A DNA stretch of 64,000 bases from Candidatus Omnitrophota bacterium (GTDB lineage Bacteria > Omnitrophota > Omnitrophia > Omnitrophales > Aquincolibacteriaceae). The notes below the pieces were generated by a model that was not told where the DNA came from, did no database searches, and saw nothing but the letters and a program-made list of their open reading frames with translations. Where the stretch lies: NCBI GenBank assembly GCA_003140935.1, contig PLLJ01000021.1, positions 4,555 through 68,554 on the forward strand, given 5' to 3'. Positions 16,849 to 62,442 of the stretch are shown in pieces (the first letter of the stretch is position 1; each line of letters starts with the position of its first letter). The position numbers were made by a program, and so were the translations under genes.

Positions 16849-16941
16849 AAGTTTTATTCATTGACGGCATTCGGGAAAGCCGCTAGACTTCGCTGTCTTT
16901 TTCCTCTATACAAATGACAAAATACAGGCATTCATCATTTA

Positions 16942-38127: not shown

Positions 38128-39225
38128 TCAATCCCGCGGCAGATGACACTGCGGTCTCATCCCGCGCTTTTCGAAATATCGCTGATGATAGTCCTCGGCT
38201 TTGTAGAATTCCTCCGCGGGCGTGATCCCGGTGACGATCGGGCGCTTGAACTTCCCGGATTTCTCCAGTTTTTCTTTTAAAGCGCGAGCCTCTTTTTCCT
38301 GTTCCGGAGAGTTATAAAAAATCGCGGAGCGGTACTGATCGCCGATATCCGGACCCTGACGGTTGACCGTCGTCGGGTCGTGGATCAACCAGAAAGTTTC
38401 CAGAAGTTTTTTGTAAGAAACTTTTGCCGGGTCGAATTCGATCTGCACCGCTTCCGCGTGTCCGGTCGTGTGCGAACAAACCTGGTCATAGGTCGGATCC
38501 TTCGTGTGGCCCCCCGTATAACCCACCGTAGTTTTGAGCACTCCCGGGACTGTTCTGAAGGCTGATTCCACGCCCCAGAAACATCCGGCCGCAAAAGTCG
38601 CGACCTGTGTCTTTTCTTTAGGAACCGTCGCGGCCTTTTTTGTTTCCTGACCAAATAATGTTAAATACCGGCCGTAACCCTCCTTCTCCATATCTTCGAG
38701 AGGGATGAACCGGAGCGAAGCGGAGTTGATGCAATAGCGAAGCCCCGTGGGCGCAGGTCCGTCCGGAAAAACATGACCGAGATGCGAGTCGCCTTTCGAA
38801 GAACGGACCTCGGTGCGTTCCATACCGAGGGCGGCATCCGATTTTTCGACGACCGCGCCTTTCTCGATCGGCTTAATGAAGCTCGGCCAACCGGTCTTGG
38901 AGTCGAATTTATCGGTCGAACTGAAGAGAGGTTCGCCCGTGACCCTGTCCACGTAGATCCCGGGTTTTTTATTGTTCCAGTATTCGTTTAGAAAAGGCGC
39001 CTCCGTGCCGTTCTCACGGATCACTTTATACTGTTCCGGCGTGAGGAGTTTTTTGAGTTCGGCATCGCTAGTGGGAAGGGCACATTGCATACCCTTTGAA
39101 ACGTCTTGCTTCTTGGATTTTTCCGTCATGGGGAAACCCTCCTGTGGGGCTTGGAACCCAAGCCCGAATGTGACGAGGCCAATGAACATTCCTATCATTA
39201 ACTTTCTCATGACGAATTGTACCAT
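38128..39225 (-). CDS. msrAB: Bifunctional peptide-methionine sulfoxide reductase MsrB-MsrA with signal peptide
   Basis: MsrB: GWPSF..., [17 protein letters not shown]. MsrA: [16 protein letters not shown]-terminal hydrophobic leader ([19 protein letters not shown]). Confidence 0.85.
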
Positions 39226-41938: not shown

Positions 41939-42057
41939 GCCGAAAAGAAAGTAGCGTTGCGGGAGTTTTTTTCTTAGAATAATGTCAACCTTTTGGCCCG
42001 ATGTCCCTATTTGAAAAATAAGCCGAGTTGGCAGGAGTGGTCGGCAAAGGAGACGGT

Positions 42058-42435
42058 ATGGCGGTGAAAAAGATACTGGTCATTGATGATGATGGGGACT
42101 ACACAAAAATGCTCGAGTTACAATTGGAGGCAAAGGGTTATGAGATCTTGATCTCCAAAGATGGGGAAGAAGGGTTCGAAAAGGCTTTGGCCGAAAAGCC
42201 GCACCTGATCCTGCTGGATATCAAAATGCCGGAAATGGACGGGTTCACTTTTGTGCGGCGGCTGAGAGCCAACGAAGCGATCAAGAAAATACCCGTTGTG
42301 ATCCTGACCGGCTATGAGGCGATGAGAGATCTGTTCCGGTTCGAGGGGATCGCGGGTTACTTTGTGAAAGGGGGCGATAGGGCCGTCCTCTTCAAGAGCA
42401 TCGAAGACATACTCCTGTCCGCAGAATCCGCCTGA
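42058..42435 (+). CDS. Single-domain response regulator (CheY-like receiver)
   Basis: ILVIDDDGDYTKMLELQLEAKGYEI...LILLDIKMPEMDGF (phospho-acceptor Asp) ...PVVILTG. AAGGAG Shine-Dalgarno before the ATG at 42058. No output domain. Confidence 0.75.
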   Translation: MAVKKILVIDDDGDYTKMLELQLEAKGYEILISKDGEEGFEKALAEKPHLILLDIKMPEMDGFTFVRRLRANEAIKKIPVVILTGYEAMRDLFRFEGIAGYFVKGGDRAVLFKSIEDILLSAESA

Positions 42436-42613: not shown

Positions 42614-42643
42614 TTGGGAAAAGTGTTCTATCGGTGGTATAAT
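42614..42643 (+). promoter_or_regulatory. Candidate sigma70-type promoter with extended -10 upstream of the hyf-like operon
   Basis: TTGGGA (42614-42619), 18-nt spacer, TGgTATAAT (42635-42643). It lies ~90 nt upstream of the ATG at 42734, which is preceded by AAAGGTGG. Confidence 0.4.
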
Positions 42644-42733: not shown

Positions 42734-44761
42734 ATGGCGTTATTCTTTTATGCTCAAATTCTGCTCCATATTTTAGGAGGGATCGCGGGTTTTCTTTTTG
42801 AACAGCACGGAGAAAAGGCGAACCGCCTGACGCATGGTTTGGCTGTTCTGGCGAGCGCAGCGGGCATTCTTTTTTCACTCGGGATACTTCTGATCGGGAA
42901 ACCCTGGGCCTTAGAATGGCAGGGAAGTTTCCCTGTGGGCGCTCTGCGGTTTGTGGCGAATCCATTTTCGGCTTTTTTTCTCCTGATCATTTCTTTCCTC
43001 TCCTTGGCCGCTTCCATTTTTGCCATCGGTTATACACGGGAATTTCAAGGGAAAAAAAATATCGCTCTTTTAGGTTTTTTCTACAATTTTTTCATACTGG
43101 CCATGCTGTTCGTGGTTACGGTGCAAAATGCCTTTTATTTTCTCTTTTTTTGGGAACTGATGTCCCTCACCTCCTACTTTCTCGTGATCTTCGAACATGA
43201 AAGACCCGAAACCCGGTCTGCCGGGACGCTTTACCTGATCATGACGCATGTGGGGACCGCCTTTATTACCGCCGCATTTTTGCTCCTTTTTATCCATGCC
43301 GGGTCTTTTTCATTCGACGCATTCCGGGAAGCTGCCAGCACGCTGTCTCCGGTTCTTAAAAACGTTATTTTTCTCGCGGCGCTCATCGGATTCGGGACCA
43401 AGGCCGGCGTGATCCCGCTCCACATCTGGTTGCCCCGGGCCCACCCGCAGGCACCCAGCCATGTTTCGGCGCTCATGTCAGGCGTTATGATTAAAACGGC
43501 TGTTTATGGGCTGCTTGTGTTTCTTTTTAATTTTTTGGGGGAAACGCCCGGCTGGTGGGGACATGTGATGCTTGCAGTCGCCATTCTTTCCACACTCCTC
43601 GGCATTCTTTATGCGCTCATGGAAAACGATCTGAAAAGATTGCTCGCTTTTTCCAGTATCGAAAACATGGGAATCATCCTTCTGGGTGTCGGGATGGCAC
43701 TCGTCTTCAGAACACTTCACCAGCCTCTTTACGCAGGCTTCGCCCTTATTGCGGCCCTTTATCATGTGATCAACCACGCAATATTCAAAGGGCTTCTGTT
43801 TCTTGGCGCGGGTTCGGTCCTTTCCGGAACGCACACGCGGAACATAGAGGGCCTCGGGGGATTGATCCGGAGAATGCCCTGGACCGCCTCTTTTTTCCTG
43901 GTGGGAGCCATGGCCATTGCCGCGCTTCCGCCGCTGAATGGTTTTATAAGCGAATGGCTGACCTTTATCGCACTTCTTTTGGGATGCGAAAGCGTGAGTC
44001 CGGCCATGCGTTTTTTTTCACCGCTTTTAGCCGCGCTTCTTGGGCTTGCGGGCGCTTTGGCAGCGACTTGTTTTGTGAAGGCTTTTGGCATCAGCTTTTT
44101 AGGGAAGCCCCGCTCTGAACGCGCCGCTCACGCGCATGAAGCGGGCGGATTCATGAAAGTCGGAATGGGGATCCTGGCCGCGAGTTGTTTTGGGTTAGCG
44201 TTGACTGCGCCGTGGATTCTGCCCATGCTTGGGGAAGCGGCAAAAACTTTATCAGCCACGGATATTTCTATGACAGGGCTAACGCAAAAAGTGTTTTTAA
44301 TGTCACCCTCAGGGTCGAGCCAATTTTCTCCGCTTCTTATCGCTATGATCCTTTCAGTATTTCTGCTCGGGACCGTGATCCTTCTCCGGTTGACCTTTGG
44401 AAAGCAACATGTCCGGATCGGTCCCAGTTGGGATTGCGGTATGCCGGGACTTGAGCCCCGGATGCAATATACCGCAACGGGTTATTCCAAACCTTTGCGG
44501 CGGATTTTTTCTTTTCTCTATCAGCCGACCCGGCGCGTGGAATTGGAGGATGAAGGTCATGCCATGCTCAGGACTGCGCAGCGTTTTGAGTCAAAGATCA
44601 CCCATCACGTGGATGAATGGGTCTATCAACCTTTGTCTGAGCTTGTGGTCGATCTTTCCCGGAAGGCCAAGCAGATCCAGACAGGGCACATCCAGCTTTA
44701 TTTAAGTTATATTTTTATCACGCTGATCCTCCTGCTTCTTTTCTTCGGAGGGCGCTCCTGA
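42734..44761 (+). CDS. HyfB/HycC/NuoL-like proton-pumping antiporter-type membrane subunit
   Basis: 675 aa, ~16 TM. GTKAGVIPLHIWLPRAHPQAPSHVSALMSG is the conserved NuoL/HyfB motif. Confidence 0.8.
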   Translation: MALFFYAQILLHILGGIAGFLFEQHGEKANRLTHGLAVLASAAGILFSLGILLIGKPWALEWQGSFPVGALRFVANPFSAFFLLIISFLSLAASIFAIGYTREFQGKKNIALLGFFYNFFILAMLFVVTVQNAFYFLFFWELMSLTSYFLVIFEHERPETRSAGTLYLIMTHVGTAFITAAFLLLFIHAGSFSFDAFREAASTLSPVLKNVIFLAALIGFGTKAGVIPLHIWLPRAHPQAPSHVSALMSGVMIKTAVYGLLVFLFNFLGETPGWWGHVMLAVAILSTLLGILYALMENDLKRLLAFSSIENMGIILLGVGMALVFRTLHQPLYAGFALIAALYHVINHAIFKGLLFLGAGSVLSGTHTRNIEGLGGLIRRMPWTASFFLVGAMAIAALPPLNGFISEWLTFIALLLGCESVSPAMRFFSPLLAALLGLAGALAATCFVKAFGISFLGKPRSERAAHAHEAGGFMKVGMGILAASCFGLALTAPWILPMLGEAAKTLSATDISMTGLTQKVFLMSPSGSSQFSPLLIAMILSVFLLGTVILLRLTFGKQHVRIGPSWDCGMPGLEPRMQYTATGYSKPLRRIFSFLYQPTRRVELEDEGHAMLRTAQRFESKITHHVDEWVYQPLSELVVDLSRKAKQIQTGHIQLYLSYIFITLILLLLFFGGRS

Positions 44762-45711
44762 TGCCGGCGATCCTTTTATCCGTTTTTCAACTCTTGTTCT
44801 TGTCGATCCTGGCTCCTGCCCTTAGCTGGTTCATCAAAAAAATGAAGGCGGCCTCACAGAACCGCGTGGGACCAAGCTTGGTCCAGGTCTATTCGGATCT
44901 GCTGAAATTGTTCCGGAAGAACATGGTCATCTCGGAAACGGCATCCTGGATCTTTCATGCCATGCCTTTCGTCCTTTTTATGTCAACCTTTGTGGCGGCT
45001 TCCATGCTGCCAATCTTAGGCATCCGTTCTCTTTTTGGTTTTACGGGGGACGTGATCCTCTTTGTTTATCTCCTGGCTTTGGGGCGTTTCTTTTTAACAC
45101 TTGCGGCATTGGATACCGGTACCACGTTCGGTGGGATGGGTTCAAGCCGGGAAATGACGCTCTCTTCGCTCGCGGAACCGGCGCTTCTTCTCGCTTTTTT
45201 TTCCTTGGGTTTTCGTGCCCATACCCTATCCTTGGAAGGGATTGTTTCCTATTTTGCTTCCGGATCTCCTACTCAGATGCTGTTTTTCACAAGCCTTACT
45301 TTCGGCGCGCTGCTGATCGTAACGATTGCGGAAAGCGGAAGGATCCCTGTGGATAATCCGGCAACACACCTGGAGCTGACCATGGTCCACGAGGCCATGA
45401 TCCTCGAATACTCCGGACAGTATCTGGCTCTGATCGAATGGAGCCATCAGATCAAACAGCTGGTGTTCTTGACGCTCTTGTCGGATCTTTTCTTCCCCTG
45501 GGGGATTTCGAGTTCATGGGGCTTTCTGGCTTTTGGATTGTCGCTGGTACTTTACCTCGCGAAGGTTTTTTTTCTGGCATTTGTGATCGGATGGATTGAG
45601 ATCCATTCCGCAAAATTGCGCCTTTTCAGGGTTCCGGACCTGCTCGCGGTGGCTTTTGTTCTGGCCATCCTTTCTCTCCTGGGACAACTGATCATCGGGA
45701 GGGGAGCATGA
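44761..45711 (+). CDS. HyfC/HycD/NuoH-like membrane subunit
   Basis: 316 aa. Overlaps the upstream stop. 8-TM NuoH-like profile (..EAMILEYSGQYLALIE..). Confidence 0.75.
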   Translation: MPAILLSVFQLLFLSILAPALSWFIKKMKAASQNRVGPSLVQVYSDLLKLFRKNMVISETASWIFHAMPFVLFMSTFVAASMLPILGIRSLFGFTGDVILFVYLLALGRFFLTLAALDTGTTFGGMGSSREMTLSSLAEPALLLAFFSLGFRAHTLSLEGIVSYFASGSPTQMLFFTSLTFGALLIVTIAESGRIPVDNPATHLELTMVHEAMILEYSGQYLALIEWSHQIKQLVFLTLLSDLFFPWGISSSWGFLAFGLSLVLYLAKVFFLAFVIGWIEIHSAKLRLFRVPDLLAVAFVLAILSLLGQLIIGRGA

Positions 45712-46367
45712 GTCCGGAACTCGCGGCTTCGGCGATCCATTTTTTGGGGATGATGCTTTTGATCGCTTCTTTCTGGATCCTCACGTCTTCCCAGATCGGC
45801 ATGAGCATCCGCGCCTACGCCGCGCACTCTTTTCTGCTCGCGCTTATTACCGCGGTGATCGCGGTCACGAACCATGTGGAGCATCTGTTGGTCCCCGCGC
45901 TCTTGACGCTCGTTCTCAAGACGATCGTGATTCCGAACGTTTTTTTCAGGATCATCCGGCGGCTCGGGATCCGCAAAGAGGTCGAAAGTTATATCAACAT
46001 TCCCTTTTCGCTTCTTTTGGCCGTATTGCTCGTGTTTGTTTCGTTCTATGTCACGGGGGACGACAAGATCCTGAAGCCGGTCGCATTCAGCGAGTTCATT
46101 CCGCTCGCCATTTCGACCGTTTTTTTCGGCATGTTGATGATGACGACCCGGAAAAAGGCGATCAATCAGGTCCTCGGCCTGCTTCTGATCGAGAACGGCC
46201 TTTTTTTGATGGCCATCACCATGACCTTCGGCATGCCGCTTTTGGTCGAGATGGGGATCTTTTTCGACGTGCTGGTCGCCGTGATGATCATGGGAATTTT
46301 TGTTTTCAAGATCCGCGACGCTTTTGAAAGCATCGATGCGGATGATATGACCGTTTTGAAAGGATAA
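45708..46367 (+). CDS. HyfE-like small membrane subunit
   Basis: 219 aa and 6-7 TM. Overlaps the upstream stop (ATGA). Size and position match HyfE of hyf-type operons. Confidence 0.65.
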   Translation: MSPELAASAIHFLGMMLLIASFWILTSSQIGMSIRAYAAHSFLLALITAVIAVTNHVEHLLVPALLTLVLKTIVIPNVFFRIIRRLGIRKEVESYINIPFSLLLAVLLVFVSFYVTGDDKILKPVAFSEFIPLAISTVFFGMLMMTTRKKAINQVLGLLLIENGLFLMAITMTFGMPLLVEMGIFFDVLVAVMIMGIFVFKIRDAFESIDADDMTVLKG

Positions 46368-46371
46368 TGCC

Positions 46372-47847
46372 ATGACGATCGACAGGGTGCTTTGGATGCC
46401 CCTTATTTTTGCGTTTCTTTGTTTGATCCCTTGTCCCAAGAGGATGACGCGCCTGACGTTTATGACCGGCGCCGTTCTTTCCGCGATCGGAGCATGGCTC
46501 TTTGTTTTTGGGACATCCTGGTCGCCCCGCGTGTTTGCTTTTAACGGAAATCTTATGATGGATTCGCTGTCCGCGGTCTTTGTGCTTCTGATCACGAGCG
46601 TCGGAGTGCTTTCCGCCGTCTATGCGGGGGGATATCTCTTCAAGGAAGGGGATTCGAGCATTTCTCCTTTAAGGCTTCGCCGGTATGCTTTCTTTTTCCA
46701 TCTTTTCCTTTTTACCATGCTTTTGACCGTTTTTTCCAATAATCTTGGCATCATGTGGATCGCGATCGAGGGGACGACGCTAGCGTCGGCCTTCTTGGTC
46801 AACGTGGATGATAAAAAAAGTTCGATCGAAGCCGCATGGAAATATCTGATCCTTTGCAGCGTTGGGATCGCGCTTGCGCTTTTCGGGATCATCCTGGTCT
46901 ATTATTCGGCGATCGCTCAAGCGGTGGTAGGAGAAAGCGGTTTTTTACTGAATTGGACCTTCCTTTTGAGCAAGGCCAAACAGTTGGATCCGCAAGTTCT
47001 CCGGCTTGCCTTTATCTTCATTCTTGTGGGCTATGGCACGAAGGCAGGCCTCGCGCCGTTCCATTCCTGGCTTCCGGACGCGCACAGCCAGGCTCCGGCC
47101 CCCGTGAGCGCGCTTCTTTCCGGCGTACTTTTAAGCTGTGCGACTTTGGGGATCCTGAGGTTCCACATCCTGACCACGGCCGCGACCGGCTCCGCATTCT
47201 CAGGCACACTTCTCATTTTATTTGGGGTGCTTTCTGTAGCCGTTGCGACGCCCTTTATCCTGGAGCAAAAAGATTATAAACGTCTTCTAGCCTATTCCAG
47301 TGTCGAGCATATGGGGCTTGCGGCTGTGGGACTGGGTTTTGGCGGCGTACTCGGGATCTACGCAGCGATTCTTCATATCGTGAACCATGCATTCACCAAA
47401 TCCCTGCTTTTTTTCAGTTCAGGGCATCTGCTCCATCTTTTTCAGACCAAGGAGATCGGTAAAGTCAAAGGGATCTTCCGGAGGAATCCGTTTTTAGGCG
47501 TCGTTTTCTTTTTAGGCGCTCTGGCTATTGCCGGAATGCCGCCATTCAGCATTTTTGTCAGCGAATTTCTTATTTTGACCGCAGGATTCCTGGCCGGAAA
47601 ATTCCTTCCGTGCGTCATTTTGCTTGTTTTACTAACACTTATCTTTGTCGGTTTTCTGAGGCATGCAAACCGGATGACTTTTGGCGTTCCGGAAGGGCCG
47701 CCCCCGATCGAGGAAAAAAGTTTCTTGATGGACGGCGTTCTTGGCGTCGGCTTGATCGTGATCTTCGCGATGGGTTTTTATATCCCAGGCCCGTTCCAGC
47801 GACTGCTTTTGGAAGCAGGCCGCGTCGCTGGAGGAGTCATCGTATGA
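46372..47847 (+). CDS. HyfF/HyfD/NuoN-like antiporter-type membrane subunit
   Basis: 491 aa. GTKAGLAPFHSWLPDAHSQAPAPVSALLSG is the conserved NuoM/NuoN motif. Confidence 0.75.
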   Translation: MTIDRVLWMPLIFAFLCLIPCPKRMTRLTFMTGAVLSAIGAWLFVFGTSWSPRVFAFNGNLMMDSLSAVFVLLITSVGVLSAVYAGGYLFKEGDSSISPLRLRRYAFFFHLFLFTMLLTVFSNNLGIMWIAIEGTTLASAFLVNVDDKKSSIEAAWKYLILCSVGIALALFGIILVYYSAIAQAVVGESGFLLNWTFLLSKAKQLDPQVLRLAFIFILVGYGTKAGLAPFHSWLPDAHSQAPAPVSALLSGVLLSCATLGILRFHILTTAATGSAFSGTLLILFGVLSVAVATPFILEQKDYKRLLAYSSVEHMGLAAVGLGFGGVLGIYAAILHIVNHAFTKSLLFFSSGHLLHLFQTKEIGKVKGIFRRNPFLGVVFFLGALAIAGMPPFSIFVSEFLILTAGFLAGKFLPCVILLVLLTLIFVGFLRHANRMTFGVPEGPPPIEEKSFLMDGVLGVGLIVIFAMGFYIPGPFQRLLLEAGRVAGGVIV

Positions 47848-49421
47848 AGACGGTTTTTCAAGAGCTGAAAAAGAGACTCGGTGATGCGATCTTGGAGGTT
47901 TCTGAGGGGCCGGCGAAAGAATGGCATGTTCTTGCGCTAAAAGATTCGATTCTAAAGATCGCGGAATGCCTCATGGAAGTTTTCGGGATGCGGTTCCTTT
48001 TTCTTTCCGGTTCCGATACAAGAAAAGAAAACGGATCTTTTACTCTCCACTACATTTTTTCCTATGCTCAACAGGACCAGTTTTTAACCGTTCAAACGAA
48101 GGTTGAGGAAAAAGACCCTCGTTTCCCGTCTTTAGCCCATTTCTTGCCGAAGGCTAATTGGCATGAGAGGGAAGTCCAGGACCTTTTGGGACTGATTGCG
48201 GTGGGGCATCCGGACCCCAGGCGTCTTGTCCTTCACGAAGACTGGCCTCAGGGGCTTTTCCCGTTGAGAAAAGATTTTGGATCTCCCAAGAAGATCCCCA
48301 GGGCCGCGGGGGATTATGTTTTTGAGCGCGTCGAAGGAGAGGGGATTTTTGAGATCCCCGTGGGTCCCGTTCATGCGGGGATCATTGAGCCCGGGCATTT
48401 TCGTTTTTCATCGGCTGGGGAAAGCATCCTCAAACTCGAAATCCGTCATTTCTACACGCACAAAGGGACCGAAAAATCAGGCGAGGGGAAATCCCCCGAA
48501 CATCTTCTTTGTCTCGCCGAAAGGATCTCGGGAGATAACTCTTTAGCTCATGCGGTGGCTTGCGCTCAGGCGCTTGAGAACCTGGGACGGATAGAGGTTT
48601 CGCCTCGCGCTCAATTTCTCCGGGTTGTTTTTCTTGAAATGGAACGTCTTCATAATCACATGAGCGACATCGCGGGGATCGCTCTGGATATCGCGTTCAG
48701 TTTTGGCGCGAGCCAGCTGATGCGGATCAAGGAAACTCTTTTAAGGCTCAATGAGCGATTGGCCGGGACGCGTCTCTTGCGGGGTGTGGTCACTTTGGGG
48801 GGTGTCCGTCAAGACATCTCCGAGACTCAAAAGGAGTGGCTTATCCAAGAGATCAAAAAGATCAAAAATGATTTTGACCAGACGATCCAACTCCTTTGGC
48901 AGGTCGATTCCCTGATGGATCGGGTCGAAACAACCGGCACGATCAAGAAAGAAGTGGCGGAGGTTCTGGGCGGTGTCGGACCGGTAGCGAGGGCCTCCGG
49001 CATTGACCGCGATCTCCGGCGGGACCATCCTTACGCGGCGTATAAGGATCTCTTTTTCAGGGTTCCTGTTTTTATGGAGGGCGACGTCGAAAGCCGCATG
49101 AAAGTAAAGGCCCAGGAGGTCTATGAATCCTTCAAGCTGATCTACGACGCCCTTTATGCGATGCCGGCGGGCCCCTTGTGCGGCGCAGTCAAGCCGCTCA
49201 TGCCGTCTCAAAGCGCATTGGGCTATACGGAGTCCCCGCGAGGAGAATGCTTTCATTGGATCTCCACGGACGGTCAGGGAAAGATCTCCCGCTGGAAGAT
49301 CCAATCACCGTCGTTCAGCAATTGGCCGTTGATCGAATATGCCGTCCTGGAGAACATAGTTCCCGATTTCCCACTTATTAACAAAAGTATGAATTTATCT
49401 TATTCCGGGAACGATCGGTAA
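47844..49421 (+). CDS. Fused NuoC-NuoD-like (HycE/HyfG-type) large subunit LACKING the four [NiFe]-ligand cysteines
   Basis: Start MKTVFQ overlaps the upstream stop (ATGA), with GGAGGAG upstream. Where HycE has RxCGxCxxxH, this protein has ERISGDNSLAH. Where HycE has DPCxxCxxR, the C-terminus reads NLSYSGNDR. Overall NuoC (N-terminal) plus NuoD fold motifs (GPVHAGIIEPGHFRF, TESPRGE) are retained. Confidence 0.8.
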   Translation: MKTVFQELKKRLGDAILEVSEGPAKEWHVLALKDSILKIAECLMEVFGMRFLFLSGSDTRKENGSFTLHYIFSYAQQDQFLTVQTKVEEKDPRFPSLAHFLPKANWHEREVQDLLGLIAVGHPDPRRLVLHEDWPQGLFPLRKDFGSPKKIPRAAGDYVFERVEGEGIFEIPVGPVHAGIIEPGHFRFSSAGESILKLEIRHFYTHKGTEKSGEGKSPEHLLCLAERISGDNSLAHAVACAQALENLGRIEVSPRAQFLRVVFLEMERLHNHMSDIAGIALDIAFSFGASQLMRIKETLLRLNERLAGTRLLRGVVTLGGVRQDISETQKEWLIQEIKKIKNDFDQTIQLLWQVDSLMDRVETTGTIKKEVAEVLGGVGPVARASGIDRDLRRDHPYAAYKDLFFRVPVFMEGDVESRMKVKAQEVYESFKLIYDALYAMPAGPLCGAVKPLMPSQSALGYTESPRGECFHWISTDGQGKISRWKIQSPSFSNWPLIEYAVLENIVPDFPLINKSMNLSYSGNDR

Positions 49422-49441
49422 AAAACAAAAAGGGGTTTTGG

Positions 49442-50350
49442 ATGTTTCGAATTCTTAAAAAAAACATAGAAACGGGAAAAGTCACCCTTCCTTACGCGTC
49501 GCTTACGGCGAAAGCCACGGAAGGTTTTCTCGGCGCACCTGAGGTCGATCCCGCAAAATGCACGGGATGCGGAAAATGCGTCATGGCCTGTCCGACCAAG
49601 GCATTGACGATAGCGGATCCTTCGTCCGAGGACAAGCGCTTTTTTCATCTTTCTTATGGAGACTGCATCTTTTGCGGTCTTTGCGGGCCTGTTTGCCCCC
49701 ATCAGGCGATCTCTTTTAAAGGAAAATTCGATCTTGCTGCGCGAACAAAAAAAGAATTATGCCGGGAATTATCTTTTTCTTTATCCGACTGCCGGAAGGA
49801 TGCCGCCTTTATGGCTCAAGGGGCTTTACCGGTAAAGGAGAAGGTGAGGGAAGTCCCCGGGTTTGAGCAAGGTGATTTTGCCGGCCGGATCTCGACGGAA
49901 GAAATAGGTTTGAGATTAAAAGACAAGATCAAACGCCTTTTCGGCCGGTCGCTTCATATCCGCGAGGTTGACGCGGGTTCCTGTAATGCTTGTGAAGTGG
50001 AGATCGTGAATCTTTCGAACCCGGTTTATGATGCGGAGCGGTTCGGCGTTCATTTCGTTGCTTCGCCAAGGCACGCGGATATGCTTCTTGTGACAGGTCC
50101 GGTGACGCGGCAGATGGAGCTGGCACTCGTGAAGACCTACGAAGCAGTCCCTTCTCCCAAGCTCGTTGTGGTTTGTGGAAGTTGTGCGGTCAGTGGCGGG
50201 ATCTTCGAAGGAAATTATGCGGTGGTGGGGGGAGTGGACCGTTCCATCCCCGTGGATGTTTATATCCCCGGATGCCCTCCGCGGCCGGAAGCCATTCTCC
50301 ACGGAATTTTTCTCGCTTTAGATAAGATACCCGCAGTTAAAGAAGATTAG
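49442..50350 (+). CDS. Fusion of HycF/NuoI-like 2x[4Fe-4S] ferredoxin (N-terminal) with HycG/NuoB-like small subunit (C-terminal)
   Basis: Ferredoxin cluster motifs CTGCGKCVMACP and CIFCGLCGPVCP, then GSCNACEVE ... CGSCAVSGG ... GCPPRPE (the four ligands of the proximal [4Fe-4S]). Confidence 0.8.
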   Translation: MFRILKKNIETGKVTLPYASLTAKATEGFLGAPEVDPAKCTGCGKCVMACPTKALTIADPSSEDKRFFHLSYGDCIFCGLCGPVCPHQAISFKGKFDLAARTKKELCRELSFSLSDCRKDAAFMAQGALPVKEKVREVPGFEQGDFAGRISTEEIGLRLKDKIKRLFGRSLHIREVDAGSCNACEVEIVNLSNPVYDAERFGVHFVASPRHADMLLVTGPVTRQMELALVKTYEAVPSPKLVVVCGSCAVSGGIFEGNYAVVGGVDRSIPVDVYIPGCPPRPEAILHGIFLALDKIPAVKED

Positions 50351-53149: not shown

Positions 53150-53225
53150 TCCCCTGTAGCTCAGCTGGTAGAGCATGCGGCTGTTAACCGCAGTGTCCCT
53201 GGTTCGATCCCAGGCGGGGGAGCCA
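53150..53225 (+). tRNA. tRNA-Asn (anticodon GTT)
   Basis: Cloverleaf readable by eye: acceptor TCCCCTG/CGGGGGA, D-arm GCTC-AGCTGGTA-GAGC, anticodon arm TGCGG-CTGTTAA-CCGCA (GTT), T-arm CCTGG-TTCGATC-CCAGG, discriminator G plus CCA. Confidence 0.85.
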
Positions 53226-54803
53226 TTCCTTAACTTCCGGCGCACCAGCGCCGGAAGGGTTAGTCGTAGGTGGAAATTGCCCTTTTTGAGCTTCGTGCTC
53301 GAAGAGGGCAATTTCTATTTCTGAAGGTGTCCACGTTACCCGTTCCACAAACAAAGGCAGCAATTCCTTCATCTCCGCAGGATCAGCCGCTTCGTAGATC
53401 TGGCTGAATTTTGTCAGGGATTCATACATGATCCGGGCATTCATGGTCTGTTGCTGGATCTGCCCGATCTCAAAGTCAATATTCTGGATATCTTTCCCGA
53501 TCTGGTCTTTCTGGTCCTCAAGCTCACGAAGCTCTTCCGTGATCGATCTATTGATCTTGAGATCCGAATGGGAGGAGATGTTGTGCAGGATGTTCTTGAT
53601 CTTGCCTTTGATCCCGGTGAGCTTGATCTCCTGATGTTTCCTGTCTTTCTTTAATCCGACAAGACTGGATCCGGTATCCTTATTAGCTTCGTCTACTATC
53701 TTCTGAACCCTCTGTTTGTCGGTGCTCATCTTTTTGATCTCGCTTAATACAGCATTTTCCAGTTGGATCGCAGGCGCATACTTCATCTTGCAGGCAGATT
53801 TCCCGCTATTGGCATTGCGCGTACACTGATAGTAGTAGCAAAGTCCGTTTCTTCCGGTGCAGTACTTGGTAGACATGTAGTTTCCGCACCAGCCGCACTT
53901 AAGAAGCCCCTGGAGGAGGAACACATGCTTGACCTTCCGCTTGGGGTTGGTCCTTTTGGGAGCCTGTAGCTGGATCTTCCGGTTCACGTCGTGCCACAGC
54001 TCTTGGGTGACGATCGGAGGGTGCTGGCCGTTGTAAACTTTTTCGAGTTGCTTGATCTCCCCTAGATAAAGAGGATTGCTCAGGATATGCAGGACATTCT
54101 GGTTATAAAATGAGGAACCGCCTTTTTTAGAGTTCTTCCTTTTGGAGACGTATTCTTTTGTGCGATAACCATGCTCGTTGAGGAACTCCACGACCTTAAG
54201 GACGGAGCCCTTCTCCAGATATTTGTTAAAGATCAGGTTGACGAACTTCGCTTCCTGTTTATTTACGACAAGTTTTTTGTCGACAAGGTCATAGCCCAGC
54301 ACGTGTCCGCCATTCCAGAGCCCCTGCTGAGCCCGCCAAAGAAGCTTGTCCTTCGTTCGCTTGGAGGTCTGCTCTCGCTCCAGCTCAGCCCAGACAAGTG
54401 TCATCTTAAGCATTGCCTGCCCCATGGGAGTGGAGGTGTCGAAACCTTCCTCAAGCGAGATGAAATCGGCGTTGTGCCTTTTGAAGGTATCGCTCAGCTT
54501 GTAGAAATCAATGAGAGAGCGGGTGATGCGATCGATCTTGGTGCAGAGGACCGTGTTGATCCTGCCGTCTTTCACATCAGAGAGAAGTTCTTGCAGAGCG
54601 GGTCTGTCAGTATTCTTCCCGGACTTGCCTTCTTCACGGTAGACGCGGACCAGCTTCCATTTTGCGGAATCGTCGCTTCCCGGAACTTCACGGAATTTGA
54701 CGTACTGCTTGAGCCTGTCCGTTTGTGTATCAAGGGATCCGTCGCGTAATTCCGCCTGGCGCTCCGTAGAGACTCTGACATATAAACCGCACAGCTTGGC
54801 CAT
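53184..54803 (-). CDS. Large serine recombinase (resolvase/invertase N-terminal domain plus recombinase and Zn-ribbon/coiled-coil C-terminal regions); probable island integrase
   Basis: N-terminal LCGLYVRVSTERQ (catalytic Ser in the resolvase motif), 539 aa. The 3' end of the gene overlaps the last ~40 nt of tRNA-Asn. Confidence 0.85.
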   Translation of the reverse strand: MAKLCGLYVRVSTERQAELRDGSLDTQTDRLKQYVKFREVPGSDDSAKWKLVRVYREEGKSGKNTDRPALQELLSDVKDGRINTVLCTKIDRITRSLIDFYKLSDTFKRHNADFISLEEGFDTSTPMGQAMLKMTLVWAELEREQTSKRTKDKLLWRAQQGLWNGGHVLGYDLVDKKLVVNKQEAKFVNLIFNKYLEKGSVLKVVEFLNEHGYRTKEYVSKRKNSKKGGSSFYNQNVLHILSNPLYLGEIKQLEKVYNGQHPPIVTQELWHDVNRKIQLQAPKRTNPKRKVKHVFLLQGLLKCGWCGNYMSTKYCTGRNGLCYYYQCTRNANSGKSACKMKYAPAIQLENAVLSEIKKMSTDKQRVQKIVDEANKDTGSSLVGLKKDRKHQEIKLTGIKGKIKNILHNISSHSDLKINRSITEELRELEDQKDQIGKDIQNIDFEIGQIQQQTMNARIMYESLTKFSQIYEAADPAEMKELLPLFVERVTWTPSEIEIALFEHEAQKGQFPPTTNPSGAGAPEVKEWLPRLGSNQGHCG

Positions 54804-55036
54804 TTTTCCTCCGGGGTTGAATAATGGATCTCGATGCGCTATACTTAGCTAAGCAACAGTTATTATAAAGCATCGATAAGGAGAAATCAATCAAATGAGG
54901 AAGTTCACGTTTTGCCCCGCAATCTGCTACACTACAGCTATGATTTTATTCATGTTTGACTATCCTGTATGGACATGTTAGATTATATTTAAACCAAACA
55001 TCGAATTAAGCATATTAAAAACGTAGGATGACAACT

Positions 55037-55813
55037 ATGGATAGTCAAAAAGCAAGTAAGATAAACCAACTCATGAAAGCATGGCCGAAAGGGACTGTAG
55101 CCGTTTATAGCTGGCTGGCCTCCCAGGGGGTTTACCGCCAATTGGCCGGCAGTTATATCAAGGGATCCTGGATCGACCGGATCGGGCGCGGAGCTTTCAA
55201 GCGGGCGGGTGAAAAAGCGGACTGGACCGGCGCGCTCTATGCCATGCAGACACAACTGAAACTCTCGGTGCACGCGGCCGGAAAAACGGCGCTTGGGTTA
55301 CAAGGGTATGCGCACTATGTGCCCATGGGCGCCGGTCAGACGGTCGTTCTTTTCGGGAGTCCCACTGAGAAACTTCCGGAGTGGTTCCGGCGTTATGACT
55401 GGAAAATGAAACCGAGATACACCGCGACAGGATTCCTGGACGTCAAAAAGAGCACGGGCCTTGCCGATCACGCGCTGGGTGATTATTCGATAAAGATCTC
55501 TTCACCCGAGCGGGCGCTACTCGAGGTCTGCTACGATGTGCCTGACGAAGAATCCTATGAGGAAGCCGGTCTCTTGATGGAAGGCCTGACGACATTGCGT
55601 TCCGAGCTGGTCCGGGAGCTTCTAAAAGAGTGCCGCTCCGTCAAGGCAAAGCGCCTTTTCATGCATCTGGCTGAAAAACAGGGTCATGCCTGGGTGAAGA
55701 AGCTCGATCTCAAGAGGGTCGACTTCGGCAGTGGTAAGCGCATGATCGGCAAGCACGGAACCTATGACGCGAAATACAAGATCGTGGTGCCTGTGGCAAA
55801 AGAGGGAACATGA
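55037..55813 (+). CDS. AbiEi family antitoxin-like protein (type IV TA / abortive infection)
   Basis: The N-terminal region resembles the AbiEi_4 winged-helix domain. Immediately upstream of, and overlapping (ATGA), an AbiEii-type nucleotidyltransferase. The ATG at 55028 is an alternative start. Confidence 0.65.
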   Translation: MDSQKASKINQLMKAWPKGTVAVYSWLASQGVYRQLAGSYIKGSWIDRIGRGAFKRAGEKADWTGALYAMQTQLKLSVHAAGKTALGLQGYAHYVPMGAGQTVVLFGSPTEKLPEWFRRYDWKMKPRYTATGFLDVKKSTGLADHALGDYSIKISSPERALLEVCYDVPDEESYEEAGLLMEGLTTLRSELVRELLKECRSVKAKRLFMHLAEKQGHAWVKKLDLKRVDFGSGKRMIGKHGTYDAKYKIVVPVAKEGT

Positions 55814-56730
55814 AGAACAGCCTCTATTACAAACAAGCCGATCTTCTGATCCGCATCCTTCCGCATGTCGCGGAAGAACCCGATTTTGCCCTGCACGGCG
55901 GCACAGCCATTAATTTTTTCGTTCGCGGTCTCCCAAGACTGTCCGTGGATATCGATCTTACCTACCTTCCCGTGGAATCCCGGGAGGATACACTCCGTCA
56001 TATCGGGGAGAAACTCCGGATCATCGCGCAAAAGATCAGAAAGACCATCTCCGGAGTCAGGGTCGAAGAGAAGATCGACAAAACAAGCGGTGCCGTTACC
56101 AAGCTTTTTGCGAACCAGCAGGGAGCCCTTGTGAAGATCGAACCCAATCTGATCATCCGGGGAGCCGTTTCTGCCTGCGAGGAAAGGGAACTTTCAAAAG
56201 AAGCGAGAGACTTCTTCGAGAAATCCGTGAGCGTAAAGATGCTTTCTTTCCAGGACCTTTACGGCAGCAAGATATGCGCGGCATTGGACCGGCAGCATTC
56301 CCGGGATTTTTTCGATGTGAAGATACTCCTGGAGAACGAGGGGATCACCGACGCGGTCCGGAAGTCTTTTCTGGTCTATCTGATCAGCCATAACCGGCCC
56401 ATGTATGAAGTCCTGGCGCCTCGTCTGAAAGACCTCCGGCCTGTTTTTGAGAAAGAATTCTTGGGGATGACCCGGATCGCCGTGACCTGCGAAGAGCTCG
56501 AACGCGTCCGGAAAGAACTGATCGCGAAGGTCCGGAGCATGCTCACCCCGGATGAACGCGAATTTTTAATGTCCTTCAAGGAAAGAACCCCGAAATGGCA
56601 GCTTCTTGGGGTGGAGGGCGCCGAGCGGTTGCCCGCCGTACGCTGGAAGCTGGCCAATCTCGAAAAAATCGAGCGCGGAAAACATAAGGTCACCGTGGCG
56701 CGGCTAAAAAAAGCTTTAGAACTTTCCTGA
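55810..56730 (+). CDS. AbiEii/AbiGii family nucleotidyltransferase toxin (DUF1814)
   Basis: ALHGGTAINFF...RLSVDIDLTY is the nucleotidyltransferase GS...DxD-type motif of AbiEii. 306 aa. Confidence 0.75.
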   Translation: MKNSLYYKQADLLIRILPHVAEEPDFALHGGTAINFFVRGLPRLSVDIDLTYLPVESREDTLRHIGEKLRIIAQKIRKTISGVRVEEKIDKTSGAVTKLFANQQGALVKIEPNLIIRGAVSACEERELSKEARDFFEKSVSVKMLSFQDLYGSKICAALDRQHSRDFFDVKILLENEGITDAVRKSFLVYLISHNRPMYEVLAPRLKDLRPVFEKEFLGMTRIAVTCEELERVRKELIAKVRSMLTPDEREFLMSFKERTPKWQLLGVEGAERLPAVRWKLANLEKIERGKHKVTVARLKKALELS

Positions 56731-56900
56731 AATATCAACGGCGCAATCGGCGATCTTCCCTTCAAAAGTGGTCCTTTTTTCTATCCGTTCGCGATTAGAG
56801 AAATTTCTTAAAACTCTCCTCAAAGGGGTTAGAATACGCGCGTAGCGGCAGTGTGATAAGTAGCGGCCAACATGGAGACAATTAAAATAGGGAAGAGTGT

Positions 56901-57887
56901 ATGCAAGAACTAAAAAATAAACTAAATGAGATAGCTCAGCAGCTTAAAAAAGGAGTTTCACCTGCAAGAATGAGTGCGCGTGACATCCTGAAATTGCTTA
57001 ATTCTTCTCGACGGGGGAGCAATGTCAATTCTTTGGTAAGAAGCGCTTTGGAAAAAGCCGGTCTTCAAACTCAGCCTGATTTTGAATGGGCATATATTGA
57101 TGGTGCCATTAAATTCGTTGCAATTGGATCTGACGAGGATCGACAGGCTATAGCTACAACTTACCGAATTGACGGGCTGGGGTCGGCGCATCGCAAACCA
57201 GTTTCGATTAAGCCAGATAGTTCGCTTAATGAGGCGACCACTATAATGATGGCTAATAATTTTTCCCAATTACCTGTCATGACTACTGAACGCGAAGTAA
57301 AGGGTGCTATCAGTTGGAAATCAATTGGGTGTCGGTTGTCATTAGGTAAAAAGTGTACGGTAGTGCGAGAATGCATGGATTCCGCTAAAATAATAGGAAT
57401 GGAATCCTCCCTTTTCGAGGCAATAAAAATAATAGCAGAACATGATTATGTGTTAGTTCAATCGCAAGAGAAAATTATATGTGGCATAGTTACGGCAAGT
57501 GATCTAAGCCAACAATTTAGTGATTTGGCCGAACCTTTCGTGTTGATAGGCGAATGCGAGAATTTCATACGCCGTCTTATTCATGGAAAGTTCTGCGTGG
57601 AGGAGCTAGATGGAGCAAAGAATCCCAATGAGCTGAGTCGCGTAGTGGAGGGGGTAGCGGATTTGACATTTGGAGAATATGTGCGATTGCTTGAAGATGA
57701 AAAACGTTGGGACAAATTGAAGCTCTCTGTAGATCGGTGCGAATTTATCAAATGGCTGAACAGGGTTCGAAACATTAGGAATGATGTAATGCATTTCGAT
57801 CCGCAGGGCGCCGACCCTGTAGCTATGCAAGCATTAAGAGAGTTCGTGCATTTCTTACAGGAGTTACGTCGTCTTGTTGTGCTGTAA
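56901..57887 (+). CDS. CBS-pair domain protein with C-terminal HEPN-like (Rx4-6H) region
   Basis: Two CBS motifs (KPDSSLNEATTIMMANNFSQLPVM..., ...IIGMESSLFEAIKIIAEHDYVLVQSQEKIICGIVTASDL). C-terminal NRVRNIRNDVMHFDP contains an R-x4-H HEPN-type motif. Confidence 0.5.
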   Translation: MQELKNKLNEIAQQLKKGVSPARMSARDILKLLNSSRRGSNVNSLVRSALEKAGLQTQPDFEWAYIDGAIKFVAIGSDEDRQAIATTYRIDGLGSAHRKPVSIKPDSSLNEATTIMMANNFSQLPVMTTEREVKGAISWKSIGCRLSLGKKCTVVRECMDSAKIIGMESSLFEAIKIIAEHDYVLVQSQEKIICGIVTASDLSQQFSDLAEPFVLIGECENFIRRLIHGKFCVEELDGAKNPNELSRVVEGVADLTFGEYVRLLEDEKRWDKLKLSVDRCEFIKWLNRVRNIRNDVMHFDPQGADPVAMQALREFVHFLQELRRLVVL

Positions 57888-57980
57888 ATAAGGGGATGCT
57901 AAGTGCTTGCCCGCCGCCGATTTTTGGCAGGGGGGGGCACCGTCCGGGTTACGTGAAATTAAAATAAAGGCAAATATGTT

Positions 57981-59417
57981 ATGAAAAAATATGAGAAGCT
58001 CGATCAGTTTTTCGAACGGGTAAAAAATTTAGGTTTTTGGCAAAGAATCTTCAGTTGGCGGCTCGTGCAAAGTTTGAGCTACGAGGCTTTTGAGGAGTAC
58101 AAAAATCTAATCCATTTGGTAGTGAGTAGTGAGGAACAGCTAGCTACTTCTTCCAATAAGATCGACTTGCTAAATAACGACAATTCCCATATCAAATCCG
58201 AGTCCGTGAAACTGCAAAGCTCACTGGATATTTCGAATACAAAACTTACTTCTGTAGAGACAGCACTTTCCGCCCATAAAGCCGCTTTAGCTTCCAGAGA
58301 AGAGACTATAAAACAGTCAGATAAAAAAATAATCGAACAGCAAGCAGAATTAAAATCATTGAAGGAAAAACACACATCCGTAGAAACCATGCTTTCCAGC
58401 GCTGAGGCTACTTTGGCCTCAAGAGAGGAAAATATAAAACAGTCCGAGAAAAAAGCAGCCGAGCAACAAGCCGAATTAAAATCCTCAAAAGAAAATGCGA
58501 GATCTCTACAAGAAGAGCTCGCTGTTCTCAAGGAAGAAAACGCAATTTTTAAAAGTACAGAAAATGATAGAAATCAAAGTTACGAAACCAAGATCGCAAC
58601 GCTTGGCGCAATCACATCGCAAGTTCAAAAAGAGCGCGAAGTGGAGAAACAGAAAAATCTGGAAAAAGAAATTCAGCGCCTTACTGCAATGAAAGAAACA
58701 TGGGCAAGACATCAGGCGAGTGTTCAAGAAGCCATTAAAATGATATGTCAGAAGCATACAATCGAGTACATAGACCAAGTTCCTTTTAAAGGGAAGCCCG
58801 ATAATACCATTCAAATAAGTGACGAATACATTATTTTTGATGCGAAAAGCCCTTCCTCCGACGATCTAAAAAATTTTCCAATCTATATTAAAACTCAAAC
58901 AGAATCAGTAAAAAAATACATTAAAGAAGCGAATGTGCGTAAAGATATATTTCTTGTGATCCCTTCTAATGCAGTTGACGTCATTGATAACTTTAGCTTC
59001 AACATGGCTGACTATAATGTGTACGTTGTAACGATAGATGTACTAGAGCCCTTAATCCTTGCTCTTAGAAAAATCGAAGACTATGAATTTGTTGAACAAT
59101 TAACCCCGGAAGATCGAGAAAATATTTGCAGAATAATCGGAAAATTCGCACATATTACTAAACGAAAAATACAAGTTGATTTTTTCTTCACAAAAGAATT
59201 GATGGGTGTTCTTAAGAAATGTGAAGCAAATTTGCCTTCAGACATTATGGGAAAAGTGGTGGAGTATGAAAAATCTGAAAAAATAAATCCTCCTCGCGAA
59301 GCACGGTCAAAGCAAATTCTAACAAAAGAGTTGGAAGTAGAAAGCGAAACCATTCAATCTAGTTTTAAAGGTCTTCCACTCAACGAGAACGATGAGACTG
59401 TCCCAAGCCACCCTTAA
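57981..59417 (+). CDS. RmuC-like coiled-coil protein (DNA recombination protein RmuC family)
   Basis: A long N-terminal coiled coil with a ~42-aa tandem repeat. The C-terminal region has the RmuC-like motif KPDNTIQISDEYIIFDAKS. Confidence 0.55.
   Translation: MKKYEKLDQFFERVKNLGFWQRIFSWRLVQSLSYEAFEEYKNLIHLVVSSEEQLATSSNKIDLLNNDNSHIKSESVKLQSSLDISNTKLTSVETALSAHKAALASREETIKQSDKKIIEQQAELKSLKEKHTSVETMLSSAEATLASREENIKQSEKKAAEQQAELKSSKENARSLQEELAVLKEENAIFKSTENDRNQSYETKIATLGAITSQVQKEREVEKQKNLEKEIQRLTAMKETWARHQASVQEAIKMICQKHTIEYIDQVPFKGKPDNTIQISDEYIIFDAKSPSSDDLKNFPIYIKTQTESVKKYIKEANVRKDIFLVIPSNAVDVIDNFSFNMADYNVYVVTIDVLEPLILALRKIEDYEFVEQLTPEDRENICRIIGKFAHITKRKIQVDFFFTKELMGVLKKCEANLPSDIMGKVVEYEKSEKINPPREARSKQILTKELEVESETIQSSFKGLPLNENDETVPSHP
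58245..58500 (+). repeat. Two tandem ~126-bp imperfect direct repeats inside the RmuC-like gene (coding 42-aa coiled-coil units)
   Basis: ...TSVETALSAHKAALASREETIKQSDKKIIEQQAELKSLKEK / ...TSVETMLSSAEATLASREENIKQSEKKAAEQQAELKSSKEN, with a matching DNA-level repeat. Confidence 0.7.
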
Positions 59418-59597
59418 ACCACACACAGATGACAGAAACGGTTCTGGCGGGGACAGTTTGGTCGTGGATATGTCCCGCTGAGAACCGATCCAATTTGCAG
59501 GCATGTGCGGAGATTTGGAAGGATTGGCTGGTATGGCTTTTACCGCAAATAAAAATATTAAAATTACCAAATTCTAATCAGGCTTCAAAGGAATAAA

Positions 59598-59813
59598 ATG
59601 CGCCGTGATCCCGTTAGTTCGTCCGACATTGAATCAATCGGTTACGATGAAGGGACTCAAACTCTAGAAATTGAATTTAAAAGAGGGAGTGCTTATCAAT
59701 ATTTTGCTGTTCCGCGAGAGGTGTATGAAGCAATGATGGCTAGTTCATCATGCGGAAAATTTTTTTATTCAAACATCAAAGACAATTATTCAAGTTCAAA
59801 GGTTTCTAGATGA
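59598..59813 (+). CDS. KTSC domain protein
   Basis: IESIGYDEGTQTLEIEFKRGSAYQYFAVPREVYEAMMASSSCGKFFYSNIKDNY matches the KTSC domain consensus. The stop overlaps the start of the OLD-family gene (ATGA). Confidence 0.7.
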   Translation: MRRDPVSSSDIESIGYDEGTQTLEIEFKRGSAYQYFAVPREVYEAMMASSSCGKFFYSNIKDNYSSSKVSR

Positions 59814-61561: not shown

Positions 61562-61579
61562 TCGCGCCTGTTTCATTGT

Positions 61580-62326: not shown

Positions 62327-62442
62327 GACTATCAGAAAACGAAAAAAGAGATGCGGTGAAGTTGCTTCAAGAAGGCAAACCCCTGCCTGAGAAGTACCGT
62401 TTTCTTTTGTTTCAGGATGACCGGGAAGGTGAGCTTGGATAA
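62323..62442 (+). CDS. Possible 39-aa small ORF translationally coupled (ATGA) to the preceding gene
   Basis: ATG at 62323 overlaps the TGA of the 248-aa gene. Encodes MRLSENEKRDAVKLLQEGKPLPEKYRFLLFQDDREGELG. Not in the supplied track because it is under 60 aa. Confidence 0.25.
   Translation: MRLSENEKRDAVKLLQEGKPLPEKYRFLLFQDDREGELG

Follow-up and report, generated by a model that had tools for sequence, protein, structure and literature searches.

Ehr complexes (Ech- or energy-converting-hydrogenase-related complexes) are relatives of the group 4 hydrogenases without the CxxC motifs and the Ni/Fe-coordinating residues. They are considered unable to metabolise H2 and are excluded from the hydrogenases by HydDB and others, and the literature assigns them no function. 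The archetype is the complex of Geobacter sulfurreducens (GSU0739-45), which consists of EhrA (NuoL-like), EhrB, EhrC (HyfE-like), EhrD, EhrL and EhrS. Ehr has also been reported in Nitrospira, ammonia-oxidising archaea (AOA), bacteria of the candidate phyla radiation (CPR), Elusimicrobia and Margulis-/Saganbacteria, and other papers cite Marreiros et al. (2013) as the source of the term. Here we analysed a stretch of 64,000 nucleotides from a Candidatus Omnitrophota bacterium (contig PLLJ01000021.1; hereafter the window, with positions counted from its first letter). It contains a hydrogenase-type gene that is predicted to encode the large subunit of an Ehr-type complex, in a six-gene operon of the make-up EhrA-B-C-D-L-S. 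In the literature that we found, neither Omnitrophota nor Methanoperedens was mentioned as a carrier of Ehr.

Judged from its genes, the operon displays three of the four features listed as defining Ehr; the fourth would be a place with reference Ehr large subunits, rather than with true group 4 hydrogenases or NuoD, in a robust tree. [quoted passage not shown] A group 4 [NiFe]-hydrogenase has four cysteines in the motifs L1 (RxCGxCxxxH) and L2 (DPCxxCxxR/H), of which EhrL has none (0/4). Two other characteristics of that group are present, i.e. a small subunit for the proximal cluster (C-x-x-C...C...C) and a proton-relay glutamate in the large subunit. A large subunit without these cysteines is an already described property of Ehr rather than a new phenomenon, and the window adds no new principle. 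A preliminary description of the sequence had named published Ehr large subunits as comparators, but had not named the cysteine loss as the defining property of Ehr. The large-subunit gene and its main motifs are:

47844-49421, plus strand: EhrL, a fused NuoC and [NiFe]-hydrogenase-type large subunit lacking the four cysteines that bind the metal; 525 amino acids, fifth of the six operon genes
48360-48410, plus strand: beta1-beta2 loop VGPVHAGIIEPGHFRFS, residues 173-189, which holds Glu182 and His185
48519-48581, plus strand: former L1 motif ERISGDNSLAHAVACAQALEN, residues 226-246, with Cys replaced by Ser229, Cys replaced by Asn232, a new Asp231, and His236 kept
49392-49418, plus strand: former L2 motif NLSYSGNDR, residues 517-525, with Cys replaced by Ser519 and Cys replaced by Gly522

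EhrL starts with an ATG that shares bases with the stop of the preceding gene (ATGA). A longer open reading frame with a GTG start at 47610 finds no support, as the full-length homologues are almost all 520-526 amino acids long. The protein ends with the arginine of the L2 motif, directly followed by a TAA stop, and has no C-terminal extension. Around the replaced positions, EhrL keeps Arg227, Gly230, His236, Glu245, Asp524 and Arg525.

In a phmmer search against all PDB chains, residues 42-525 of EhrL aligned with Escherichia coli HycE (7z0s_E; E=3.3e-91, 32% identity). MbhL was matched with E=7.6e-45, and MbsL much more weakly than HycE (E=1.9e-25). The alignment places RVCGICGFAH of HycE over RISGDNSLAH of EhrL, and DPCYSCTDR over NLSYSGNDR. 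A MAFFT alignment of EhrL with HycE, MbhL, Nqo4 and 138 relatives gave the same register at L1 and L2. Hence, both alignments bear out the earlier claims that the two segments are homologous to L1 and L2, and that all four cysteines are replaced while the histidine is retained; the position given for L1 (48.7 kb) needs correction to 48.52 kb. Pfam recognises a NuoC-like Complex1_30kDa domain (residues 33-146), followed by Complex1_49kDa and NiFeSe_Hases, and no NCBIfam model reaches its cut-off for EhrL. The AlphaFold2 (AF2) model of EhrL has a pLDDT of 82.7 and finds HycE (7z0s_E) as its top Foldseek match, with a TM score of 0.85. The domains, the alignment and the structural match agree with the earlier comparison of the fused NuoC-like domain with HycE/HyfG. 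EhrL is a close structural relative of HycE/HyfG without the ligands for the canonical [NiFe] centre, and since these ligands are missing it cannot be a hydrogenase.

The replaced site is highly conserved among relatives. A search of 5.8 billion clustered proteins listed 120 nearest homologues with 50-90% identity to EhrL; where named, those at 61-90% identity are from Candidatus Omnitrophota and those at about 50-54% from Candidatus Methanoperedens or anaerobic methanotrophic (ANME-2) archaea. All 120 read ER[IV]SGD[NH]xxxH at the former L1 motif, and in all 119 with a complete C-terminus the last residues are LSY[SA]G[NS]D and one more. The first ligand position is Ser in 120/120 and the second is Asn in 117 and His in 3, whereas the third and fourth are invariably Ser and Gly (119/119). 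Bacteria and archaea alike have thus retained the site, although outside it the identity has dropped to about 50%. This degree of conservation is far beyond chance or sequencing error.

One could still suppose that the missing cysteines reflect a sequencing or assembly artefact, or that the gene is a decaying pseudogene. The conservation of the replaced residues, found in 120/120 independent homologues from many assemblies, refutes the artefact, and we regard the probability of either explanation as practically nil. The codons at the four former ligand sites (Ser229 TCG, Asn232 AAC, Ser519 TCT, Gly522 GGG) are separated from Cys codons by seven nucleotide changes, the frame is open over 525 codons and translationally coupled to its neighbours, and the whole six-gene operon is conserved in both Omnitrophota and Methanoperedens. 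By these sequence comparisons, the loss of the cysteines is evolved and under purifying selection rather than artefactual.

A more diverse set of 59 sequences without the cysteines (Cys-less sequences) shows the same residues. Position 229 is Ser in 50 and Ala in 9 of these, position 231 is Asp in 56, position 519 is Ser in 57, position 522 is Gly in 57, and position 524 is Asp in all 59. The preliminary description had argued for an evolved loss, a view that these sequences and the 120 homologues uphold. It had called the replacements polar or small, which is true; to this can be added that they form a conserved motif with a newly fixed Asp231 (56/59), which lies between the two former ligands of L1 at a position that is hydrophobic in relatives that have the cysteines (Cys-type relatives). 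Glu182 and His185 are invariant in these diverse Ehr sequences (both 59/59) and nearly so in the Cys-type relatives (21/21 and 20/21, respectively). Glu182 aligns in phmmer with MbhL E21, which is described in the literature as the key proton-reduction residue of the membrane-bound hydrogenase MBH. A screen for positions that are conserved yet different between Ehr and Cys-type sequences singled out the ligand positions and, beyond these, position 489 alone (Pro versus Ala). This outcome implies that the replacement residues constitute a separate conserved motif within a scaffold that has otherwise stayed the same, and it provides no further clue to the substrate.

The intact scaffold, including Glu182, His236 and Asp524, with only position 489 differing systematically beyond the ligands, could also be taken to mean that EhrL still converts H2, with a metal centre bound via non-cysteine ligands. 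We consider this very improbable. The [NiFe] hydrogenases in the literature covered bind their centre by four cysteines, Ehr is kept apart from the hydrogenases in HydDB and elsewhere, and we found no hyp maturation gene in the 64 kb window or beside the related loci.

To place EhrL in the wider family, 1.84 billion cluster representatives (50% identity) were searched exhaustively with HMMER, which gave 1081 matches at E<=1e-30. Most of the best 150 representatives are Cys-less. Of the 138 best near-full-length representatives plus references in the alignment, 95 lack the four cysteines altogether, and 31 carry the complete set. Cys-type and Cys-less sequences alike carry the beta1-beta2 loop VGPxHAGxIEPGHFRF. 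The Cys-type motif reads ERxCGxCxxSH ... [NE]LCY[SA]CxDR and the Cys-less motif ERxSGD[STEN]xxxH ... NLSY[SA]GND[LR].

We also scanned the species genomes of GTDB; the matches listed were more distant relatives, with no Omnitrophota or Methanoperedens loci among them, and were used for family-wide statistics. Among these listed matches, Cys-less relatives at 39-51% identity occurred in many lineages. Their hosts included the archaeal Methanosarcinales, Methanomassiliicoccales and Nitrososphaeraceae/Nitrosotenuis, and the bacterial Nitrospira, Rokubacteria, Acidobacteria, Chloroflexi, Firmicutes, CPR, Methylobacter and an actinomycete isolate. The pattern S-G-D-polar ... S-Y-x-G-x-D recurs in most of the distant relatives. 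Those without the cysteines from Nitrospira, AOA and CPR share the S-G-D / S-Y-x-G replacement motif with EhrL at 42-47% identity, and these lineages overlap with those for which Ehr has been reported in the literature.

Neighbour-joining trees (Kimura distances, with and without the motif columns, 50 bootstraps) were poorly resolved, with 5-13 inferred changes of the cysteine state. Two sequences with all four cysteines (P0121 and P0123) and one with three (P0163), which share 40-49% identity with the query, fall among Cys-less sequences in these trees, also when the motif columns are excluded. Such interleaving reflects either low resolution of the trees, or cysteines that were lost repeatedly, with convergence on the same replacement residues.

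The six genes of the operon are contiguous and co-directional (42734-50350, plus strand), and were assigned with Pfam and NCBIfam. Besides EhrL, the features are:

42614-42643, plus strand: candidate sigma-70-type promoter, TTGGGA-18-TATAAT with TG extension, a match to the consensus alone (10/12), about 90 bp upstream of the first gene
42734-44761, plus strand: EhrA/HyfB-like antiporter-type membrane subunit, 675 amino acids (Pfam Proton_antipo_M, E=2.8e-56)
44761-45711, plus strand: EhrB, NuoH/HycD-like membrane anchor of the peripheral arm, 316 amino acids (Pfam NADHdh, E=4.6e-41)
45708-46367, plus strand: EhrC, HyfE-like small membrane subunit, 219 amino acids (NCBIfam 'hydrogenase 4 membrane subunit' (HyfE), E=3.3e-30, below the cut-off; weak Pfam Oxidored_q2)
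46372-47847, plus strand: EhrD/HyfF-like antiporter-type membrane subunit, 491 amino acids (Pfam Proton_antipo_M, E=1.2e-55)
49442-50350, plus strand: EhrS, in which a HycF/HyfH-type 2x[4Fe-4S] domain is fused to a NuoB/MbhJ/HycG-type small subunit, 302 amino acids
49442-49798, plus strand: EhrS N-terminal HycF/HyfH/NuoI-type 2x[4Fe-4S] ferredoxin domain, residues 1-119 (Pfam Fer4/Fer4_7; NCBIfam HyfH/HycF-type)
49913-50350, plus strand: EhrS C-terminal NuoB/MbhJ/HycG-type domain, residues 158-302 (MbhJ E=2e-44, HycG E=1.2e-41)

Neighbouring genes overlap by 1-4 nt or are 4-20 nt apart, which together with the single promoter-like site indicates one transcription unit. The gene downstream of 50350 is convergent, and an Rfam scan revealed no riboswitch or other RNA element at the operon. 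A response regulator gene directly upstream (42028-42435) was considered and rejected as a part of the system, since it is missing from the orthologous locus (L003/L004).

EhrA matches the NCBIfam model 'hydrogenase 4 subunit B' with 742.7 bits, against a cut-off of 667, and the best PDB matches of EhrD are MbsH and MbhH. Both antiporter-type subunits keep charged motifs of their transmembrane helices (TM). EhrA has FWELMS (TM5 Glu), GTKAG...HIWLP (TM7 Lys) and HAIFKGLLF (TM12 Lys), and by alignment EhrD has IAIEG (TM5 Glu), GTKAGLAPFHSWLPDAH (TM7 Lys) and HAFTKSLLF (TM12 Lys).

An Omnitrophota orthologue with 79% identity has the same operon. The Methanoperedens orthologue also has this operon, except that the HycF-like and NuoB-like parts are encoded by two genes, with a Usp gene after them. 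When all open reading frames of 84 related loci and the window were clustered, nothing recurred beyond the six core genes; ArsR-type regulators, Usp, ABC ATPases and kinases turned up sporadically. Neither beside the 84 loci nor in the orthologous loci did we find a conserved partner oxidoreductase, hyp gene or formate dehydrogenase gene.

In gene content, the operon resembles the Geobacter-type Ehr, with a Cys-less group-4-type large subunit and NuoL-, NuoH-, HyfE-like, second antiporter-like and NuoB-like subunits. It differs from this archetype in that EhrS carries the N-terminal HycF-like 2x[4Fe-4S] domain. The fusion of NuoC with the large subunit and the gene order HyfB-C-E-F-G-(H)-I are shared with Hyf (hydrogenase-4), with HycE of the formate hydrogenlyase complex (FHL), and with the Cys-containing sister group (group 4f-like, 'Ehf'-type). 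Members of the sister group are up to 49% identical to EhrL (e.g. P0121), have the VGPxHAGxIEPGHFRF loop, and likewise end in ...DR without an extension. In contrast to all of these, EhrL has lost all four ligands and gained Asp231, and position 489 differs (Pro versus Ala). Moreover, no FdhF/HycB-type partner gene and no hyp gene was found near the operon.

The N-terminal domain of EhrS matches residues 1-119 of HycF (7z0s_F; E=2.9e-22) and keeps all eight cysteines (CTGCGKCVMACP, CIFCGLCGPVCP). In the C-terminal domain, the four cysteines of the proximal [4Fe-4S] cluster (GSCNACE, GSCA, GCPP) are aligned with those of MbhJ and HycG. The cysteine ligands of a three-cluster chain are therefore complete. 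The Methanoperedens orthologue, about 52% identical overall, has the full set of 12 Fe-S cysteines as well. The metal ligands are the only loss in the complex; the Fe-S cysteines, Glu182 and the charged motifs of the antiporter-like subunits are all kept.

We favour, with moderate confidence, the interpretation that the complex is a ferredoxin-linked, ion-translocating oxidoreductase that is unable to make H2; most of the uncertainty concerns the acceptor. A low-potential donor, most likely ferredoxin, would feed electrons through the three clusters to a remodelled polar pocket, containing Asp231, at the interface of EhrL, EhrS and EhrB. An acceptor other than H+ would be reduced in this pocket, with uptake of protons, and the resulting change in charge would pass via the beta1-beta2 loop to the HyfB/HyfF/HyfE-like membrane arm, which would translocate H+ or Na+. 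The reaction could also proceed in the opposite direction.

Another known relative that has lost the nickel site is the sulfane sulfur reductase MBS. Like MBS, the complex in the window would be hydrogenase-derived, ferredoxin-dependent and ion-translocating, and would have lost the H2 chemistry but kept the three-cluster wire, as far as its genes and sequence comparisons indicate. Unlike EhrL, however, MbsL keeps two of the four cysteines (C85, C385). MBS has a hydrophobic chamber without an equivalent of E21, whereas EhrL has Glu182 and polar replacements. Furthermore, MBS ligates its proximal cluster by three cysteines rather than the four of EhrS, and it has a Mrp-type arrangement of 13 subunits rather than six genes. 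The locus in the window is therefore not an MBS.

The main rival is that Ehr is a Mrp-like secondary cation/proton antiporter, whose peripheral arm serves as a structural cap or redox sensor. The Fe-S chain would then gate or regulate transport by the reduction state of ferredoxin, and nothing would be reduced in the former [NiFe] pocket. We judge this unlikely, although several observations fit it. The literature relates the membrane arm to Mrp, and no acceptor-related or partner gene is conserved nearby. Moreover, a subclass of Ehr with neither the four small-subunit cysteines nor the ferredoxin domain keeps S-G-D, S-Y-x-G and the full membrane arm (Methanosarcina L070 and L073, Dehalogenimonas L078, CPR L044 and L047). 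Conversely, the 12 Fe-S cysteines, including those of the ferredoxin entry domain, are conserved between Omnitrophota and Methanoperedens, which is much to keep for a sensor. In addition, the proton-relay residue Glu182 is invariant, and the Fe-S-less forms may be a later, separate specialisation.

In 69 sampled Cys-less loci, the ferredoxin domain was fused in 9 and encoded by a separate gene in 6, and another 23 had just the NuoB-like subunit; in the other 31/69, a test of the downstream genes detected no small subunit. Among the 63 Cys-less loci with a candidate small-subunit gene, 44 keep all four NuoB-type cysteines, and in 15 the candidate gene has none of the four cluster cysteines. In 5 of these 15 loci (L001, L002, L005-L007), the gene picked is the separate ferredoxin gene, and the NuoB gene of Methanoperedens keeps its cysteines. 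In the remaining ones the cysteines are missing from the small subunit itself (GSDNSxE / GDDAC / GNPP), but both the S-G-D / S-Y-x-G motif and the membrane arm persist. Loci without the proximal-cluster cysteines are L044, L047, L050, L053, L058, L060, L066, L070, L073, L078 and L084; they read GNPP or GDPP and have no ferredoxin domain. Their hosts include Methanosarcina, Dehalogenimonas/Dehalococcoidales, Saccharibacteria and Daviesbacteria. Judging from their genes, these complexes would have no redox cofactor at all.

Another explanation is that the complex is a ferredoxin:menaquinone oxidoreductase, i.e. a quinone reductase like complex I or NDH-1 built on a hydrogenase scaffold. Like EhrL, the large subunits of complex I, NDH-1 and Fpo (NuoD, NdhH, FpoD) have lost the four [NiFe] cysteines, and these complexes have the fold of the large subunit, a NuoB-type cluster and antiporter-like pumps in common with the one in the window. 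The window contains a MqnA/MqnD-type gene of the futalosine pathway (11739-12626, plus strand; Pfam VitK2_biosynth, E=1.4e-70), which suggests that this Omnitrophota bacterium makes menaquinone. Many Ehr hosts are generally regarded as quinone-respiring. According to the literature, the menaquinone-using Methanoperedenaceae are devoid of Rnf, how they re-oxidise ferredoxin is not settled, and an interaction of Ehr with quinones has been suggested.

Nevertheless, the complex does not show the sequence marks of a quinone site, and we consider this explanation quite improbable. Complex I-type quinone reductases have His38 and Tyr87 (numbering of Nqo4) and a tandem Cys-Cys at cluster N2. These quinone ligands are absent from EhrL, where they align with Ile181 and Gly230, and EhrS has the C-x-x-C spacing (C-N-A-C) of MBH rather than the tandem CC that is typical of quinone reducers. 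At E<=1e-8, the NuoH-like subunit EhrB matches only HycD (9.6e-37) and MbhM (4.9e-30) in the PDB, and NuoH of complex I is not among its matches. The operon also lacks the NuoA/J/K set and the N-module. Finally, Ehr occurs in Riflemargulisbacteria, where no complete quinone pathway has been identified according to the literature, and also in CPR and in a metagenome-assembled genome of Acetobacterium.

Some of these results count against the ferredoxin-linked oxidoreductase that we favour as well. No acceptor was identified for the complex in the window from sequence, neighbourhood or literature, and the residues and spacing just described, together with the PDB matches of EhrB, separate it from the known quinone reducers. 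In about a quarter of the sampled Ehr loci, by the count of 15/63 given above, the small subunit has none of its cysteines while S-G-D / S-Y-x-G persists; whatever the pocket is conserved for may therefore work without any transfer of electrons. In the AF2 model, pLDDT is below 50 at the segments that form the pocket (residues 157-197 and 519-525), and because of this low confidence no site geometry can be derived for the remodelled pocket. Furthermore, the neighbour-joining trees contained no labelled reference Ehr sequence (e.g. Geobacter GSU0739-45), and a full-text search of the literature from 2021 onwards found no biochemical characterisation of Ehr.

Several other features of the window lie outside the operon. 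Genes for oxidative stress are found around it, namely one for a Fe/Mn superoxide dismutase (28224-28850, minus strand) and one whose product looks by sequence like a fused MsrB-MsrA methionine sulfoxide reductase (38128-39225, minus strand). The orthologous locus L003 has a rubrerythrin gene (16694-17380). Downstream of the operon, a tRNA gene (53150-53222, plus strand) abuts a large serine recombinase (53184-54803, minus strand). Beyond the recombinase are defence-type genes, namely an AbiEi/AbiEii type IV toxin-antitoxin system (55028-56730), a CBS-domain protein, an OLD-family ATPase-nuclease with AAA_15 and TOPRIM domains (59810-61561), and a SocA/Panacea antitoxin-like gene (62612-63295). 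The region 53150-63295 looks like an integrated mobile or defence island, and locus L003 has other genes in its place. Near the start of the window, a giant open reading frame (460-11694, plus strand; 3744 amino acids) has a methyltransferase domain near residues 2959-3117 as its sole Pfam match.

The Ehr family is very large and extends across many bacterial and archaeal phyla. Homologues of EhrL (P0002, P0004, P0009, P0064 and cluster members) are labelled 'Ni,Fe-hydrogenase III large subunit' (JGI), 'NADH-quinone oxidoreductase subunit C' (NCBI), 'Membrane-bound hydrogenase subunit alpha' or 'hydrogenase large subunit', and none has a curated EhrL name. Such hydrogenase and NuoC labels can mislead on the metabolism of H2 or NADH in Omnitrophota and Methanoperedens, which is avoided when these proteins are recognised as Ehr. 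The form in which HycF and NuoB are fused has a clear electron-input module, which makes it a sensible choice for work on what Ehr does.

More speculatively, the 'SGDNS' subclade of Omnitrophota and Methanoperedens, in which the wire for electron entry from ferredoxin (2x[4Fe-4S] plus the proximal cluster) is complete, may be a distinct enzyme, i.e. a ferredoxin-oxidising ion pump in which the former [NiFe] pocket is now a metal-free, proton-coupled site centred on Asp231 and Glu182 that reduces menaquinone or another non-proton acceptor. We would give this proposal only a small chance of being correct. If true, it would reveal an overlooked route for the re-oxidation of ferredoxin in methane-oxidising Methanoperedenaceae without Rnf, and would represent a third re-use of the hydrogenase scaffold, besides MBS and complex I.

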